Of a stretch of DNA of 64,000 nt, positions 32,196 through 54,259 are shown piece by piece. The stretch's first letter is position 1. Every line of letters starts with the position of its first letter. Made by a program: the position numbers and the translations under genes. The notes below the pieces were generated by a model, which saw only the letters and a list, made by a program, of their open reading frames with translations, made no database searches and was not told the origin of the DNA. Source of the DNA: TPA_inf: Saccharomyces (Eukaryota). The DNA is taken from assembly GCA_000146045.2 (NCBI GenBank), contig BK006948.2, positions 800,001 through 864,000 on the forward strand, read 5' to 3'.

Positions 32196-32643
32196 ACGCC
32201 AGTACGAAAGAAAAACTTTTCGTTCGTCTCGGGCACCATTGGTATAAAAAGCGCCGAGGCAGCGATCATTTTTCTAGTATTACTCTTCTTTCATTTTTTA
32301 GTTATCTTTGATTTTCGGTTCCGAAGAAGGCATGATACATATTAAACATGCCTTCTATTCACTGTGCCATCTTACATCCGTAGGTGATCAGAGGGGAAAA
32401 GAAGAGCTAGAGCAACTCCCACACTCATGAGCGTCCTCATACTGTTCTGGGCGCTTCTCACAGGTGCTTCTTTTAGTGTCTCCCATTGGCCCAGATCGGT
32501 AGCTGCGCGAGTGAGATATCTTTCATTCATTTATATTTATCTGTAGCAATAGCTTCCTTTACTATTTTATTCTTAGGGAGAACTTTAGCTTATTTCTTGC
32601 ACAAGAGGGTTTGACAGTTTTCTGTTACCCGGCCAGTACTTCA

Positions 32644-34451: not shown

Positions 34452-36431
34452 TCAAACCATTCTGGCGGAAGCATCGGTGGCCATTTCCGTATACGAATAA
34501 CCGTCTTCATTATCCTTGATAGCTGAGTATAAACTATTGGAAATGGGTTCATTACGATTTTGCGCATGTTGCCCGTCCTCGCGATCAAACGAGGCAGGAA
34601 CGGGCTGCGTATGGGTCCTGCGCAGAGATAGCCTTTCACCTGGTTTTTCTCTAGTCGAAGGGTCTGTTTCCATGGTCCTTAACGTGGTCATCCTTGTTAG
34701 ATTCAATTCACCATCGACAGCATTTACGTCATCTATACCACCTTCGGTCTCAGCCTCCTTTTCCATGGCGGCATAACCAAATTGTGACTTGTGTCTTAAT
34801 TTGCTCCCCCATTTTTCAAAAACCCATGGAATTGGAATCATCACAACGCAAACTAATGCAAATAAAGTGCTTGCCCATTTGATTTTCATCTTTGTGTACA
34901 TTTGGATGGTAAACAATGGGAATACACTACTCATAACGTATCTTAATAGATTATTGGCAGCCAAACAGGATGCCACAGTTAATGGCGGATAGCATGTAGA
35001 GAAGTACATTAAAACGCTGAAAAAAATCAAAATTAAACCAAAACCAAATGGCACACCGGCAGCCACAGGAGCCATCCAGTGGACATCTGATCTAGCAGTC
35101 CAGGCTTGCCAAAACAGGCCGATAGGCAAAGCTACAGAACCAAATTTACAGGCAATTAAAAATTTTTCTGGAACAACGGGTAGCAATTCACCTGTTTCAG
35201 CGTCTCTTGCACCTCTGTAAGGGGTAGTCCTTTTAGAAGTTCTCTCTTTTTCGGTGAGTGGTTGAGTGCCAGCTGGTGGTTTAGGGAAGAGATATTTTCT
35301 GTCGATGTAAAGGTAAAAGAAAGCACCTATCCATAACCCGACACCAATACCAATAAATGGCAAGCCAGATATCCCCATAGACATGTGGTAAACACCACGA
35401 TAAATGACAGCGTATGCTTCGAAAAATCCAAATAAAATGGCGAATATGAAAGCGACATAAACACTGAAAACAAATACAATAGGTTCAACGACAAGCATTT
35501 TTAAAGGCCTTAAGATTGTAATAGTGACAGTGGTTTTTAAAAATTCTTTCTGAGCTTCCCTGCTGAACTTCTTCAAGGCTATATTTCTCTTCTTGGCACG
35601 CTTTCTTAAAATAATACCTTTATGGGTCTCTGGCATGAGCGCAATAAATGGCAAGATTAGACCGCCCGCAATCAATTGGATCCATTCAGACCAACGCCAG
35701 CCTTTGGCTTCAGTAGCAAATCCTGCCATAATAGGAGATAAAACTGGCCCTAAGAATGGAGATAGAACAAAGTATGTCATTGCGACGGAGACCTGGTCCA
35801 CGTCAAAGATATCCAGGATGGTACCTGATCCAACGGATAAGGCGGGGGATGCAAAGACACCTGATAAAAACCTTAGGGGTAGAATTATTCTCATGTGGCC
35901 ATTGGATAACCCAACACCCATGGTGAAAAGCATTGACACAGGTAGGGAAAATAAATAGACAGGCTTACGACCAAACACTTCACTTAATGGAGCGCCGATG
36001 ACAGTCGATAAACCCAGAAGATAGAAAGTTAAACCAGCAAGCGCCAAAGTCTGACTAACGTGATATCTTTCTACCAATTCTGGTACGGAAGAAACATATA
36101 GGGAACTACCCATTGTGACGACCAAACAAAGAAAAGCTGAAGTCATAGTAGTATACCATTTCTTCAAAGAGGACCAATTATGCGGATTGTCTGGGTCATC
36201 GGGCCCGTCCCAATCGAGATCTCTTGGGTCAATTGGCTCGCCCCCTGTCATGTTATTGGAATCTGCATTCGGTTCTGATCTTTTTTCGTCCTCTGTTATT
36301 GACCCTGTCGAAGAAGAAGTCGAATCCAAGTTGCCGCTATTAGTTACATTTTTGTCCAAGGCTTTTGGTACCTGCTGTATGTTTGTTCGAGGATCTGAGT
36401 TAGATTCGGTTTTTGTCAAAGAAGAAGGCAT
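34452..36431 (-). CDS. TPO4: Tpo4, MFS polyamine/drug:H+ antiporter (659 aa)
   Basis: Major-facilitator topology with 12 predicted transmembrane segments; hydrophilic N-terminus. Confidence 0.9.
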   Translation of the reverse strand: MPSSLTKTESNSDPRTNIQQVPKALDKNVTNSGNLDSTSSSTGSITEDEKRSEPNADSNNMTGGEPIDPRDLDWDGPDDPDNPHNWSSLKKWYTTMTSAFLCLVVTMGSSLYVSSVPELVERYHVSQTLALAGLTFYLLGLSTVIGAPLSEVFGRKPVYLFSLPVSMLFTMGVGLSNGHMRIILPLRFLSGVFASPALSVGSGTILDIFDVDQVSVAMTYFVLSPFLGPVLSPIMAGFATEAKGWRWSEWIQLIAGGLILPFIALMPETHKGIILRKRAKKRNIALKKFSREAQKEFLKTTVTITILRPLKMLVVEPIVFVFSVYVAFIFAILFGFFEAYAVIYRGVYHMSMGISGLPFIGIGVGLWIGAFFYLYIDRKYLFPKPPAGTQPLTEKERTSKRTTPYRGARDAETGELLPVVPEKFLIACKFGSVALPIGLFWQAWTARSDVHWMAPVAAGVPFGFGLILIFFSVLMYFSTCYPPLTVASCLAANNLLRYVMSSVFPLFTIQMYTKMKIKWASTLFALVCVVMIPIPWVFEKWGSKLRHKSQFGYAAMEKEAETEGGIDDVNAVDGELNLTRMTTLRTMETDPSTREKPGERLSLRRTHTQPVPASFDREDGQHAQNRNEPISNSLYSAIKDNEDGYSYTEMATDASARMV

Positions 36432-36745
36432 TAGTAAAACTTAAAATATATGTATACGATGTCTATGCTTCTTTGTGTGTGTATGTGTGTGTATAAGATG
36501 GTATCTTTATTCTGTAATTTTCAGGAAAGTGATGACTAGAAAATCGATGTGTCAGGTACAACAAATTGACAACCTATAACTTTCCATACAGGCGAATATA
36601 TATATACACATAAACACATTCAAGCCTCCGGTACCGTTTGCTCTGACAAGGACAATTAGCATGTAAGCACGAGTGCGGGTATGCAATCATTTCAGTGTTT
36701 CCTTCATTTGGCATAGTGTCGTAACACGGATTTAAGGTGAGCCGT

Positions 36746-36770
36746 CAGGGGCTTTTAAGCGGAGCCCCTG
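36746..36770. repeat. Perfect 7-bp GC-rich inverted repeat (hairpin CAGGGGC-N11-GCCCCTG) inside a GC-rich non-coding island
   Basis: CAGGGGCTTTTAAGCGGAGCCCCTG. Confidence 0.6.
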
Positions 36771-37017
36771 CAGCTTCATGAAGACGGAACCGCACGGGCC
36801 TATTACCTCGGGGATAGATCAATTATCCGAAGCGGGTCACAACCCGGAAATAATAACCACTATGCCCGACCGTACCGACGTGGCACTATTTTTGGGATCC
36901 GTGGAAGTCGGCCATTAGTGGTAATCGGCGAAAACAAGTTTATTGCAGCTAAAGCACGCCATACGGTTGATATAAACAGCAATTAGGCACTTTTTCTCTT
37001 ATTATTCATATGCCTTA

Positions 37018-37041
37018 TTGGCTTGTGGCTTGTGGCTTGTA
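37018..37041. repeat. Tandem heptamer (TGGCTTG)x3 in the MOD5/TPO4 intergenic region
   Basis: TGGCTTGTGGCTTGTGGCTTGTAGCC. Confidence 0.7.
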
Positions 37042-37673
37042 GCCTATGCAAATGCATTTGCTGATAGCAGCATAAGAAAGTTGGGAAGAAACGCTAACTG
37101 TACTTTTTATATCCAGAGTTCATTAGTTGATCTTTTACCCCAATAATTTCTTCCACTTGCGGCCTGCTTCTTCGCATTTCTCCCATTCCGGGCCGCGACT
37201 CCGTAGTTCTTACAGAAACAGCCGCCTCCATAACCATCTATGATAGGAAAAAGATGGACAAACAGGAAAAGAGCTAGGGAGTATAACCTGATTCCTGACA
37301 TGTATAGGATTCGGGTAATTTTGAAATACGAAGCTCTTTGCATTCCGAGACCGGTTTAGGAAGATTTATTTACATATCTACTTGCGCTATTGTGGTCATG
37401 CCTTCGAAAGATAAAGAGCGAATTTTGCTCGTATAAGCTAAAATCAGGTAAAAGTTCCTTATGTTGCTGCTCCTCGATGGCAACGTCGATCTAAGATCTT
37501 GATTACTGAATCAGGCGAAAGCACACGTTCATCTTTCGCTCATCGGAAAGAAAATTAAAACAGAAAAAAATTCTAAAATGGCAAAAAAGAAGAAAAGCTC
37601 AGTGAGGGCTGTATAGTTTATTAGATAAGCTACTATACGTACATATCTTTTGTAAATAGAACCAAAAATCTTC

Positions 37674-38960
37674 ATGCTAAAGGGACCGCTTAAAGGTTGC
37701 TTAAATATGTCTAAAAAAGTTATAGTGATTGCTGGTACAACAGGAGTAGGAAAGTCTCAGTTGTCCATACAATTGGCACAAAAATTTAATGGCGAAGTTA
37801 TCAATTCGGATTCTATGCAGGTATATAAAGATATTCCTATTATAACAAATAAACATCCGCTTCAAGAAAGAGAGGGCATTCCTCACCATGTAATGAATCA
37901 CGTAGATTGGTCAGAAGAATACTATTCCCATCGTTTTGAAACTGAATGCATGAACGCTATTGAAGATATTCACCGGAGGGGTAAGATACCCATCGTTGTT
38001 GGGGGTACTCATTATTATTTGCAGACTCTTTTCAATAAGCGGGTCGATACGAAATCATCCGAACGTAAGCTCACAAGGAAGCAGCTCGATATTTTGGAAT
38101 CGACTGACCCTGATGTGATTTATAACACACTTGTGAAGTGTGATCCTGATATAGCTACCAAATACCATCCTAATGACTACAGGAGGGTACAACGAATGTT
38201 GGAAATCTACTATAAGACGGGCAAAAAACCAAGCGAGACATTTAACGAACAAAAAATAACTTTGAAGTTTGATACCCTATTTTTATGGCTATACAGTAAG
38301 CCGGAGCCACTTTTCCAAAGGCTTGACGATCGTGTAGACGACATGCTAGAAAGAGGCGCCTTGCAAGAAATCAAGCAATTATATGAATATTACAGTCAAA
38401 ATAAATTTACGCCGGAGCAATGCGAGAATGGTGTTTGGCAAGTTATTGGCTTCAAAGAATTCTTACCGTGGCTAACCGGGAAAACTGATGACAACACAGT
38501 AAAATTGGAGGATTGTATAGAAAGAATGAAAACGAGAACACGTCAATACGCAAAAAGGCAGGTAAAATGGATCAAGAAAATGCTGATACCTGACATCAAA
38601 GGCGATATATACTTACTGGATGCCACTGACCTTTCTCAATGGGACACGAATGCATCTCAAAGAGCGATAGCTATTTCCAATGACTTTATTAGCAATCGAC
38701 CCATCAAGCAAGAAAGGGCACCTAAAGCCCTAGAGGAGCTGTTGTCTAAAGGCGAAACTACGATGAAGAAATTGGACGATTGGACACATTATACTTGCAA
38801 CGTCTGTCGTAACGCAGATGGTAAGAACGTTGTAGCTATTGGCGAAAAATATTGGAAAATTCATTTGGGTAGCAGAAGACATAAATCCAACTTGAAAAGA
38901 AACACTCGTCAAGCTGATTTTGAAAAATGGAAAATAAACAAGAAGGAGACTGTGGAATGA
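37674..38960 (+). CDS. MOD5: Mod5, tRNA dimethylallyl (isopentenyl) transferase (428 aa) with two in-frame initiation codons (M1 and M12)
   Basis: P-loop GTTGVGKSQLS; C-terminal C2H2-like zinc finger (CNVCRN...HLGSRRH); ATGs at 37674 and 37707 in frame. Confidence 0.95.
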   Translation: MLKGPLKGCLNMSKKVIVIAGTTGVGKSQLSIQLAQKFNGEVINSDSMQVYKDIPIITNKHPLQEREGIPHHVMNHVDWSEEYYSHRFETECMNAIEDIHRRGKIPIVVGGTHYYLQTLFNKRVDTKSSERKLTRKQLDILESTDPDVIYNTLVKCDPDIATKYHPNDYRRVQRMLEIYYKTGKKPSETFNEQKITLKFDTLFLWLYSKPEPLFQRLDDRVDDMLERGALQEIKQLYEYYSQNKFTPEQCENGVWQVIGFKEFLPWLTGKTDDNTVKLEDCIERMKTRTRQYAKRQVKWIKKMLIPDIKGDIYLLDATDLSQWDTNASQRAIAISNDFISNRPIKQERAPKALEELLSKGETTMKKLDDWTHYTCNVCRNADGKNVVAIGEKYWKIHLGSRRHKSNLKRNTRQADFEKWKINKKETVE

Positions 38961-41957: not shown

Positions 41958-42182
41958 TTAAAATGTAGAACGAATCATGACCAACTGTATCAGGTGTTTA
42001 AAAAGGCGAGGTGAAAGAGAAAGGCTTCCCCCTCTAATATCAACAGCTGGAGATACATCTTTCTAATAATTAATCTACCATGAGCCGTACGCACTGAAGC
42101 AACGCCCATCAAACATCCGAAGCCACATTATGAGTACAAAAGAGGCTGACGTTAATAGGAACTCATGGTGTAATTTTGCTTC
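41958..42182 (-). ncRNA. SNR31: Candidate H/ACA box snoRNA (snR31-like), minus strand
   Basis: Recalled to lie in the CAF20-HEM4 interval. A minus-strand 3' end around 41961 has ACA (complement of 41964-41966) followed by 3 nt and a U-rich run; candidate H box AGAUUA mid-RNA; TATA-like TATATTTAAA (complement of 42241-42250) about 60 bp upstream of the proposed 5' end. Ends uncertain by a few nt. Confidence 0.45.
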
Positions 42183-42402: not shown

Positions 42403-42599
42403 ATCATTCAATAAACTGATCTTCCGGATTACCATGCTTAAGACATCACGCCTCCATATGTCTATATAAAGCGCAAATGGCTGGAAGTAGACCAATTTTT
42501 TTTGTTCCTAGCTTTTCATTATTGAAATCTAATCCAGTTTTAATGGTTTTTCTTAATTAAGAAAACAAATTATCATTGGTTCGCTCTAGGTGTACATAT
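42403..42599 (+). ncRNA. SNR5: Candidate H/ACA box snoRNA (snR5-like), plus strand, divergent from the snR31-like gene
   Basis: GGTATAAAAGGCG TATA box at 42331-42343, about 65 bp upstream of the proposed 5' end; ACA at 42594-42596 is exactly 3 nt from the proposed 3' end (42599); candidate H box AGACCA near 42488; no ORF of 60 aa or more. Confidence 0.5.
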
Positions 42600-54186: not shown

Positions 54187-54259
54187 TGGACGCAACCGGA
54201 ATCGAACCGATGACCTCTTCCTTGCAAGGGAAGCGCGCTACCAACTGCGCCATGTGCCC
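54187..54259 (-). tRNA. tA(UGC): tRNA-Ala (anticodon UGC), 73 nt
   Basis: Reverse complement reads GGGCACATGGCGCAGTTGGTAGCGCGCTTCCCTTGCAAGGAAGAGGTCATCGGTTCGATTCCGGTTGCGTCCA: A box TGGCGCAGTTGG, B box GGTTCGATTCC, anticodon loop CTTGCAA (TGC), 7-bp acceptor stem GGGCACA/TGCGTCC. Confidence 0.95.

Follow-up and report, generated by a model that had tools for sequence, protein, structure and literature searches.

The closest described relatives of the sequence analysed here are the canonical oleate response elements (OREs) of the peroxisomal/β-oxidation genes POX1, FOX2, POT1, CTA1, SPS19 and FAA2, to which the Zn2Cys6 heterodimer Oaf1-Pip2 binds. In two of these promoters, SPS19 and POX1, an Adr1-type site overlaps the ORE. 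The canonical elements consist of inverted CGG/CCG triplets 15-18 bp apart, with TNA or TNR three bases past the CGG, and they lie a few hundred base pairs upstream of the ATG of genes for peroxisomal enzymes. They occur more than one to a promoter, POX1 and IDP3 also being listed with several (PMC2173120). We used CGGN3TNAN9-12CCG as the strict consensus, and CGGN3TN(A/R)N8-12CCG is the relaxed form (PMC2784042). OREs can activate in both orientations, and in the SPS18-SPS19 spacer an ORE enhancer lies between divergent genes of which one alone is known to respond to fatty acids (PMC2784042).

TPO4 (YOR273C) has been tied to this system before. It is an oleate-cluster candidate with one predicted ORE and 11 clustering hits, and it clusters together with peroxisomal genes when cells are induced with oleate (N=11) (PMC2173120). 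A canonical ORE at TPO4 and a decrease of the TPO4 transcript in oaf1Δ cells have both been published; the gene ranked 23rd among the most reduced oaf1Δ transcripts and belongs to an OAF1/PIP2-regulated module. YOR273C and its neighbour YOR274W (MOD5) are both entered as Oaf1 and Pip2 ChIP-exo targets in Table S8 of PMC6068829, which assigns occupancy by gene pair and not by palindrome. According to a review, Pip2 acts on TPO4 in oleate-grown cells (PMC4021133); the main text of Smith 2007 (PMC1911199) does not name TPO4. The regulatory link between Oaf1/Pip2 and TPO4 is already known, and the DNA described below is a promoter element of a familiar type, most of which has been described before.

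The TPO4 locus resembles the canonical ORE promoters in the inverted CGG/CCG triplets and their spacing, in the TNA/TNR bases, in the position relative to the ATG and in having more than one element and, on the published evidence, in being oleate-co-regulated and Oaf1-dependent. It differs in its product, a plasma-membrane/vacuolar polyamine and drug exporter rather than a peroxisomal enzyme, and in that one of its three elements appears, from its bases, to be inactivated by a single-nucleotide polymorphism (SNP) in the reference strain. A half site of the Adr1 type (CCCCAA, 37138) comes no closer to an ORE than about 270 bp and does not overlap it. The arrangement recalls SPS18-SPS19 in placing an ORE enhancer between divergent genes. 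Unlike that spacer, the TPO4-MOD5 spacer is long (1.24 kb) and yielded no counterpart of the insulating or repressing SPS18 MSE, and MOD5 is served by a distant proximal promoter of its own. We conclude, with a probability of roughly 0.85, that the GC-rich island between the two genes is a conserved upstream activating region of TPO4, a compact cluster of zinc-cluster (Zn2Cys6) and C2H2 factor sites in which OREs predominate.

A conserved GC-rich island upstream of TPO4

The window, by which we mean the whole 64-kb stretch of S. cerevisiae chrXV that was analysed, contains TPO4 on the minus strand (34452-36431) and, transcribed divergently from it, MOD5 on the plus strand (37674-38960), both assigned from their ORFs and translations. 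TPO4 encodes an MFS polyamine/drug transporter (99% identity between the window protein and S. cerevisiae Tpo4p); MOD5 encodes a tRNA isopentenyltransferase, and its homologues carry the IPPT domain. The spacer was aligned across six species, S. cerevisiae, S. mikatae, S. kudriavzevii, S. arboricola, S. uvarum and S. eubayanus; S. paradoxus, whose Mod5 we assumed to fall within the S. cerevisiae 90% cluster (15 of 75 members listed), was left out.

The preliminary description had singled out a GC-rich island at 36690-36960, and this segment does have 50.6% GC, where the window as a whole has 37.8% and the flanking spacer 36-39%; no more than 0.4% of all 271-bp windows across the 64 kb attain this value. 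Its CpG observed/expected ratio is 1.16, against 0.78 window-wide. The rest of the spacer had been called AT-rich, which is true of the flanks of the island but not of a second, smaller and likewise conserved patch at 37150-37250 (53% GC), within which the block TTCCGGGCCGCGACTCCGTAGTT...ACAGAAACAGCCGCC (37172-37231) has 57% GC and 45-48% invariant columns. The island had also been called free of ORFs in all six frames; this holds for ORFs of at least 50 codons, but three ORFs of 40-46 codons overlap it. The ATG of the one that we checked (36778-36918) is not kept in the other species.

Conservation across species, a check that the preliminary description had proposed, came out clearly positive. 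The segment 36660-36910, which we regard as the core of the island and a candidate upstream activating region (UAS) 229-479 bp upstream of the TPO4 ATG, has 43% invariant columns, compared with 21% in the rest of the spacer (six Saccharomyces species; binomial p=1.7e-15). The orthologous segments have 50-55% GC in all six species, so the GC island has been kept in the five others. Inside the island, G and C are the best-conserved bases (44-51% invariant), while outside it they are the worst (14%). The conservation takes the form of short blocks centred on CGG/CCG triplets, and the indels between species, some of 1 or 2 nt, do not come in multiples of three. The CGG/CCG-rich stretches CCGCACGGGCC and CCGAAGCGGGTCACAACCCGG lie where they had been placed, at 36790 and 36827. 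Six CGG/CCG triplets are fully invariant (36727, 36790, 36809, 36827, 36845 and 36866), and such triplets are invariant more often than others (odds ratio 4.4; Fisher p=0.012). Five of the six are ends of the palindromes described below; the sixth, at 36790, belongs to a separate CCGCAC block. The patch is GC-rich because selection keeps G/C-rich recognition triplets while the unconstrained spacer drifts toward AT.

Three palindromes of the Oaf1/Pip2 type and neighbouring sites

Three inverted CGG-N15-18-CCG palindromes are found in the island, all of which fit the Oaf1/Pip2 ORE, one of them (ORE-A) in its ancestral form. ORE-B (CGGAAATAATAACCACTATGCCCG, 36845-36868, plus strand) is the spacer's sole strict match, and the 64 kb hold three in all. 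Shuffled spacers give 0.06 strict matches on average, and within S. cerevisiae alone one strict ORE is no more than marginally unexpected (P=0.06). The CGG and CCG ends of ORE-B and its inner AT and CTA bases are invariant in the six species, and the orthologous element is strict in four of the others and relaxed in S. eubayanus. ORE-C (CGGGGATAGATCAATTATCCG, 36809-36829, plus strand) has CGG-N15-CCG spacing and fits the relaxed consensus; it is matched in all six species, with both end triplets and GATAG invariant. ORE-A (CGGATTTAAGGTGAGCCGTCAG, 36727-36748, plus strand) is degenerate in the allele of the window, its ancestral form, ending in GTCCG, being a strict ORE. Its orthologs are strict in S. 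mikatae, S. kudriavzevii, S. arboricola, S. uvarum and S. eubayanus, 10 of the 17 other haplotypes of S. cerevisiae carry it intact, and GCGGATTTAAGG is invariant in the six species. The bases critical to an ORE are under purifying selection here, the end triplets being unchanged throughout the alignment at both ends of ORE-B and ORE-C and at the 5' end of ORE-A. The three elements lie 296-437 bp from the ATG of TPO4 and 806-947 bp from that of MOD5. That these palindromes are the sites occupied by Oaf1/Pip2 would fit the published ChIP-exo assignment.

Between the island and TPO4, TATATATATA (36597-36606, minus strand), 166-175 bp upstream of the ATG, is from its position the likely TATA element of the gene; AATATATATAT at this place is nearly invariant in the six-species alignment.

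Several other sites lie among and beside the OREs. The conserved block GAGCCCCTGCAGC (36762-36774, minus strand) contains an STRE-type AGGGG (36765-36769); CCCCTGC within it is invariant in the six-species alignment, and AGGGG is matched at the orthologous place in every species. The motif suggests that the factor bound there may be a C2H2 protein of the Msn2/4 type. In the block ACGGAACCGCACGG (36784-36797), which has a CGG-N2-CCG / CCG-N2-CGG arrangement, GGA.CCGCAC is invariant, including the CCG at 36790, and none of the consensus patterns that we scanned was reported to match it. This block and another at 36683-36695 are conserved outside the assigned factor sites. Scans with the consensus sequences for Gal4, Put3, Hap1, Leu3, Cat8/Sip4, War1, Abf1, Cbf1, Gcn4, Yap1, Rpn4 and Mig1 gave no match conserved across species.

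[quoted passage not shown] The sequence TCCGTGGAA (36898-36906, plus strand) is one mismatch from the former and also fits the latter. A PDRE-like site is present at the orthologous place in five of the six species, being a perfect TCCGCGGA in S. uvarum and lost from that place in S. arboricola. It shares with the PDREs of PDR5, SNQ2, YOR1 and TPO1 an everted CCG-CGG core, here within TCCGTGGA at 36898, and TPO4 is like the genes with PDRE promoters in that its product is an efflux transporter of drugs and polyamines and its expression rises together with the PDR regulon under HMF stress. PDR5, on the other hand, has multiple perfect PDREs and TPO4 a single site with one mismatch. PMC3091778 groups TPO4 with the Pdr1/Pdr3 regulon and gives a 2-3-fold induction by HMF; the Pdr1/3 control of TPO4 is database-derived, and TPO4 does not appear among the Δpdr1-reduced genes in the qRT-PCR results that we consulted.

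Farther from TPO4, the (TGGCTTG)x3 tandem of the preliminary description was recovered by TRF as 3.1 copies at 37019-37040 on the plus strand (score 44), one base away from its earlier coordinates. The copy number is two or three in S. cerevisiae, S. kudriavzevii and S. arboricola and one in S. uvarum and S. eubayanus; the array of S. mikatae is degenerate. GTGGCTT in the repeat resembles the Crz1 site GTGGCTG. YOR273C has been included in a comparison table of Crz1 targets, and TPO4 is up upon CRZ1 overexpression; a role of the repeat as a Crz1-type site is speculative.

A segregating substitution, the hairpin and the RNA readings

Position 36747 (plus strand) is a segregating SNP at which comparison of haplotypes and species identifies C as ancestral and A, carried by the S288C-type haplotype, as derived. 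The window and all seven haplotypes with the S288C-type Mod5 protein have the A; the C occurs in all ten haplotypes with another Mod5 allele, including GCA_000149365.1 (locus L014), which we take to be RM11-1a, and in all five other species. With the derived A, ORE-A loses its 3' CCG, an AGGGG arises and the stem of a hairpin becomes complete. It is possible, though we hold it only tentatively, that 36747 C>A acts in cis as a natural regulatory variant, moving the control of TPO4 away from fatty acids and toward general stress in laboratory strains and strains related to them. More remote than this is a reading in which the island is also the source of an unstable promoter-associated transcript.

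This hairpin had been put forward as a perfect 7-bp stem, CAGGGGC at 36746 pairing with GCCCCTG at 36764. Both arms are present, but the stem is in fact one of 8 bp, CAGGGGCT-N9-AGCCCCTG (36746-36770), and is borderline relative to shuffled sequences (P=0.06). Restoring the ancestral C at 36747 leaves no stem of 7 bp. Among the other species the hairpin is mismatched in three and interrupted by a 6-nt insertion in two more, with no compensatory change. It is a by-product of palindromic factor sites and one derived SNP.

These results bear directly on two readings that the preliminary description had offered, an unannotated structured ncRNA and a tRNA or Pol III relic. An ncRNA with the hairpin as part of its fold would fit the perfect 8-bp stem, the sequence conservation of the island and predicted folds of -82 and -84 kcal/mol on the two strands. 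The fold z-scores, however, are -0.87 (plus) and -1.33 (minus), within the range of dinucleotide shuffles, and the RNAalifold covariation terms are -0.75 and -0.6 kcal/mol for the two strands, most pairs being either invariant or broken. The hairpin is allele-specific, since it needs the derived A, and is not maintained in other species, and the conserved blocks sit on CGG/CCG triplets rather than on paired arms. The suggested Rfam search, which covered the whole window at gathering score and the spacer at E≤10, found no family in the island at threshold, the best sub-threshold match there having E=1.4, at chance level; the matches in the window (snR8, snR31, snR5 and tRNA-Ala) all lie outside it. 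Searches, fold statistics and covariation alike lend the ncRNA no support, and we consider it very improbable. A decayed tRNA gene or other Pol III/TFIIIC (ETC-like) site has next to no chance of being correct. What speaks for it is TTAGTGGTAAT at 36915, loosely like the D-arm/A-box region of a tRNA. The sequence is indeed present, but no part of the region is less conserved than the stretch that holds it, the share of invariant columns at 36912-36951 being 0%. The tRNA-Ala at 54187-54259 was all that ARAGORN and the tRNA model of Rfam (RF00005) detected, with nothing in the island. The lack of a tRNA B box noted earlier was borne out, the GGTTCRANNCC pattern being absent from the spacer in all six species; the A-box pattern has no match in the S. 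cerevisiae spacer and a single one among the five others, in S. uvarum, outside the island. The Pol III reading thus fails in these scans as well.

The third option of the preliminary description, an array of zinc-cluster factor sites, is the one that the data favour: the invariant triplets pair into Oaf1/Pip2-type palindromes, a PDRE-like site accompanies them, and occupancy and Oaf1 dependence have been published.

The target gene and the history of the spacer

We infer that the palindromes most likely act on TPO4 rather than on MOD5. TPO4 of K. africana, N. bracarensis and N. castellii is preceded, at a distance of 150-230 bp, by an ORE or a palindrome resembling one; that of N. castellii, alone among those of the distant species, visibly resembles ORE-B by eye, with a spacing (N13) just outside the consensus. 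As a comparison from before the whole-genome duplication we used L. fermentati, Z. rouxii being without TPO4 beside MOD5. In L. fermentati a CGG-rich patch of 55-58% GC with a relaxed ORE stays with TPO4, and the PAC motif GCTCATCGC is carried by the 84-bp spacer between DML1 and MOD5. In the window the proximal promoter of MOD5 has a PAC-type motif, GCTCATCG (37538-37545, plus strand), at 129-136 bp before the start codon, and TCGC.CATCGG at this motif is invariant in the six species. This suggests that MOD5 runs on a short proximal promoter.

The island might instead be a shared bidirectional enhancer that drives MOD5 as well as, or in place of, TPO4. The activity of OREs in both orientations (PMC2784042) would allow this, and both genes are ChIP-exo targets of Oaf1/Pip2 in Table S8, although that listing of both simply reflects their shared spacer. 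The OREs are nearer to the ATG of TPO4, we found no report of oleate or Oaf1 dependence of MOD5 in the papers searched, none of which names both TPO4 and MOD5, and a conserved proximal PAC motif belongs to MOD5 itself, which in pre-duplication yeasts works with an upstream spacer of only 84-118 bp. We therefore regard a shared enhancer as unlikely. Gene order invites another explanation, in which the GC patch is what decay has left of a gene that disappeared following the whole-genome duplication. In the ancestor, TPO4 and MOD5 were separated by DML1, the order being TPO4 <> DML1 > MOD5 in L. fermentati, and in Z. rouxii DML1 is also directly upstream of MOD5. It follows that the S. cerevisiae spacer must include the site of the lost DML1 copy, which helps to explain its length of 1.24 kb. 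As the origin of the GC patch, however, such a relic is very improbable: a tblastn search of nine spacers with DML1 from Z. rouxii and from L. fermentati gave a best E of 1.1, some indels in the island are 1 or 2 nt long, and its conservation is concentrated on factor-site triplets. Moreover, a GC-rich, CGG-rich patch is already beside TPO4 in L. fermentati, where DML1 is intact.

If the island is an upstream activating region of TPO4, it would act from about 230-480 bp upstream of the start codon, just upstream of the TATA element. Its backbone would be the three inverted OREs, to which the Oaf1-Pip2 heterodimer binds in the presence of fatty acids, and these would place TPO4 in the fatty-acid/peroxisome regulon. 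The STRE-like CCCCT, the CGG/CCG block and the PDRE-like TCCGTGGAA may add stress and drug inputs.

The compositional oddity that drew attention to the island is explained as the normal outcome of selection on GC-rich zinc-cluster sites in a spacer that drifts toward AT. Beyond a tidy annotation the significance is small. The map of sites (three OREs, the STRE-like block and the PDRE-like site) is a concrete design for promoter dissection, and the derived SNP, which leaves the reference strain with one deeply conserved ORE broken, bears on how TPO4 expression data from BY strains are read.

Composition and conservation of the TPO4-MOD5 spacer

The RNA genes recognized with Rfam and the translations into Tpo4p and Mod5p identify the window as S. 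cerevisiae chromosome XV. TPO4 (34452-36431, minus strand) and MOD5 (37674-38960, plus strand) are separated by a divergent spacer of 1,242 bp (36432-37673), and the known RNA genes, the H/ACA snoRNAs snR8 (32332-32521), snR31 (41961-42182) and snR5 (42403-42599) and a tRNA-Ala(TGC) (54187-54259), lie outside it. All features of the preliminary description were found in the sequence where it had placed them. The GC-rich island that it reported at 36690-36960 is 50.6% GC, compared with 37.8% for the window and 36-39% for the spacer flanks, and a GC content of at least 50.6% is attained by only 0.4% of 271-bp windows across the 64 kb. The island had been called ORF-free, which holds for ORFs of at least 50 codons, whereas three ORFs of 40-46 codons overlap it. 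There is a second, smaller GC-rich patch at 37150-37250.

Orthologous loci of S. mikatae, S. kudriavzevii, S. arboricola, S. uvarum and S. eubayanus were fetched via their Mod5 proteins. The order YTM1-TPO4<>MOD5-RIM20-CAF20 is kept in all five, with spacers of 1.25-1.34 kb. In the six-species alignment, 43% of the columns are invariant in 36660-36910 versus 21% in the rest of the spacer (binomial p=1.7e-15), and GC content is 50-55% in the orthologous island segments of each species and 33-40% in the remainder of the spacer. Within the island, G and C are conserved better than the other bases (44-51% invariant), and outside it they are conserved least (14%), the signature of selection retaining GC-rich elements while the remaining spacer drifts AT-ward. 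Only three SNPs occur within the 251-bp island among 18 S. cerevisiae haplotypes. A lack of conservation beyond neutral expectation, which had been named as an argument against the island, was not observed, and because its conservation exceeds that of the rest of the spacer, the island is most probably functional.

Several motifs lie elsewhere in the spacer. The (TGGCTTG)x3 tandem was confirmed at 37019-37040, outside the strongly conserved core; its conservation is partial: three species have two to three copies, S. mikatae has a degenerate array, and S. uvarum and S. eubayanus each have a single copy. The Crz1 site is GTGGCTG, from which GTGGCTT differs by one base. A table comparing Crz1 targets includes YOR273C, and CRZ1 overexpression raises TPO4; a Crz1 link of the repeat is a lead only. 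Another GC-rich block, TTCCGGGCCGCGACTCCGTAGTT...ACAGAAACAGCCGCC (37172-37231), is conserved as well (45-48% invariant columns); in the other species it reads AGCCGCCG, resembling the Ume6 URS1 core, and just upstream of it is a conserved Adr1-type half site, CCCCAA (37138-37143; TTGGGG on the minus strand). A TG/TGTGTGTGTA microsatellite 43-63 bp upstream of the TPO4 ATG (36474-36494) is present in all six species, varying in length and strongly expanded in S. eubayanus. TCGTATA, of the Upc2/Ecm22 sterol-response type, occurs at 36453-36459 and 37429-37435; the latter is common to S. arboricola, and its enclosing block, GTTCGTATAAG, is partly retained in S. mikatae.

Oleate response elements and the polymorphism at 36747

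Of the 16 CGG/CCG triplets in the island, six do not vary among the six species (36727, 36790, 36809, 36827, 36845 and 36866). Five of them are ends of three inverted CGG...CCG palindromes with 15-18 bp spacing, matched by consensus to the Oaf1/Pip2-type oleate response element (ORE); the other, at 36790, lies within a CCGCAC block to which no factor was matched. ORE-B (36845-36868, CGGAAATAATAACCACTATGCCCG) fits the strict consensus CGGN3TNAN9-12CCG, and its orthologous position gives a strict match in four other species and a relaxed match in the fifth. ORE-C (36809-36829, CGGGGATAGATCAATTATCCG) fits the relaxed consensus CGGN3TN(A/R)N8-12CCG (PMC2784042) in all six. ORE-A (36727-36748) reads ...GTCAG in the window; the five other species and the C-allele S. 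cerevisiae strains have a strict ORE there (CGGATTTAAGGTGAGCCGTCCG). By shuffling, 0.06 strict OREs are expected per spacer, and only three exist in the whole 64 kb. The island also contains the conserved blocks GAGCCCCTGCAGC, with an STRE-type CCCCT invariant in six species, and ACGGAACCGCACGG. A PDRE-like (Pdr1/Pdr3) sequence, TCCGTGGAA, at 36898 has one mismatch; S. uvarum has the perfect site, S. arboricola has lost it, and one S. cerevisiae haplotype carries G>A at 36904 within it.

The hairpin reported as a 7-bp stem is present in the sequence; the stem is really 8 bp with a 9-nt loop, and is borderline relative to shuffles (P=0.06). It is completed by the A at 36747. All five other species carry C here, as do 10 of the 17 other S. 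cerevisiae haplotypes, among them that of assembly GCA_000149365.1, which we take to be RM11-1a. The hairpin is allele-specific: the C allele leaves no 7-bp stem. S. uvarum and S. eubayanus also have a 6-nt insertion within the stem region. The reference-type A is, judging from these comparisons, the derived allele of a segregating A/C polymorphism. It disrupts the strict, deeply conserved ORE-A and generates AGGGG, making 36747 A/C a candidate cis-regulatory variant for TPO4.

Alternative readings and the history of the spacer

Three options had been put forward, a structured ncRNA, a tRNA or Pol III relic and an array of Zn-cluster transcription-factor sites, and only the last is supported: the invariant triplets pair into ORE palindromes, and the published link of Oaf1/Pip2 to TPO4 agrees. 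An Rfam search of the island gave no family beyond chance level, even at E<=10, its folding is no more stable than that of dinucleotide shuffles (z-scores of -0.87 and -1.33 for the two strands), and RNAalifold covariation terms (-0.75 and -0.6 kcal/mol) are essentially nil, all of which speaks against a structured ncRNA. As to a tRNA or Pol III relic, ARAGORN found no tRNA in the island, the B-box pattern is absent from all six species' spacers and the A box from that of S. cerevisiae, and the "D-loop-like" TTAGTGGTAAT sits in the least conserved stretch (36912-36951, 0% invariant columns). A coding reading was rejected, given that island indels in the six-species alignment include 1- and 2-nt lengths and the other species do not keep the start codon (ATG) of the 46-codon ORF at 36778.

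A relic of a lost gene was also considered. The pre-duplication order is YTM1-CARME-TPO4<>DML1>MOD5><RIM20 (L. fermentati locus L029, 3440-8752; Z. rouxii locus L019, 4497-7290); the Z. rouxii locus has no TPO4 beside MOD5, and the full order, with TPO4<>DML1>MOD5, is thus from L. fermentati. The post-duplication yeasts sampled no longer have the DML1 and CARME-domain gene copies on this track, and the DML1 that ancestrally lay between TPO4 and MOD5 was lost following the whole-genome duplication. The S. cerevisiae spacer therefore spans a gene-loss site, partly explaining its length. No protein-level DML1 relic was detected in nine spacers and the island is on the TPO4-proximal side, and the relic reading was rejected. 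The N. castellii spacer (locus L018, 5070-5725) contains a 100%-identical inverted copy of the RIM20/MOD5 convergent 3' ends, covering RIM20 amino acids 560-678 and MOD5 amino acids 372-437. The copy reflects either a very recent inverted duplication or an artefact of the assembly, and makes the spacer look longer in that species.

Association of the island with TPO4

The three OREs lie 296-437 bp upstream of the TPO4 ATG, slightly farther out than the conserved TATATATATA (-166 to -175), which is the likely TATA element of TPO4, and 806-947 bp from the MOD5 ATG. A strict ORE is found about 205 bp upstream of TPO4 in K. africana and about 150 bp upstream in N. bracarensis. The N. castellii palindrome CGGTTATAAGTCCCCATTAGTGCCG, about 230 bp upstream, is one base above the spacing limit and, judged by eye, resembles Saccharomyces ORE-B. 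In pre-duplication L. fermentati, TPO4 is preceded at 150-300 bp by a CGG-rich patch of 55-58% GC that includes a relaxed ORE. The GC-rich module stays with TPO4 in these species. MOD5 has just 118 bp of upstream spacer in Z. rouxii, and in L. fermentati is preceded by an 84-bp DML1-MOD5 spacer bearing a PAC-type GCTCATCGC. This motif, together with the PAC-type GCTCATCG (37538-37545, about 130 bp upstream of the MOD5 ATG) that is invariant in six species, suggests that MOD5 belongs to a ribosome-biogenesis-type regulon with a short proximal promoter. Since OREs are able to work bidirectionally (PMC2784042), the island may have a secondary effect on MOD5.

Published data concur on TPO4. YOR273C is listed among the genes that oleate induces together with peroxisomal ones; one ORE was predicted for it, and it had 11 clustering hits (Smith et al. 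2002, PMC2173120). TPO4 was placed in the OAF1/PIP2-regulated "peroxisome module" as having a canonical ORE, and ranked 23rd among transcripts lowered in oaf1Δ (Lee et al. 2009, PMC2627940). The single predicted ORE of these S288C-based studies agrees with ORE-B being the sole strict ORE in this allele. In the gene-level listing of Bergenholm et al. 2018 (PMC6068829, Table S8), Oaf1 and Pip2 each have YOR273C as well as YOR274W among their ChIP-exo targets, and a review has Pip2 acting on TPO4 in oleate-grown cells (PMC4021133). Under HMF stress, TPO4 is described as induced together with the PDR regulon (PMC3091778).

The island is real and conserved, a cis-regulatory module of a familiar type, and the literature already describes its central feature, the ORE preceding TPO4. 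New, and only mildly so, are the deeply conserved arrangement of three OREs and the derived SNP of the S288C haplotype, which breaks one ORE and makes a hairpin.
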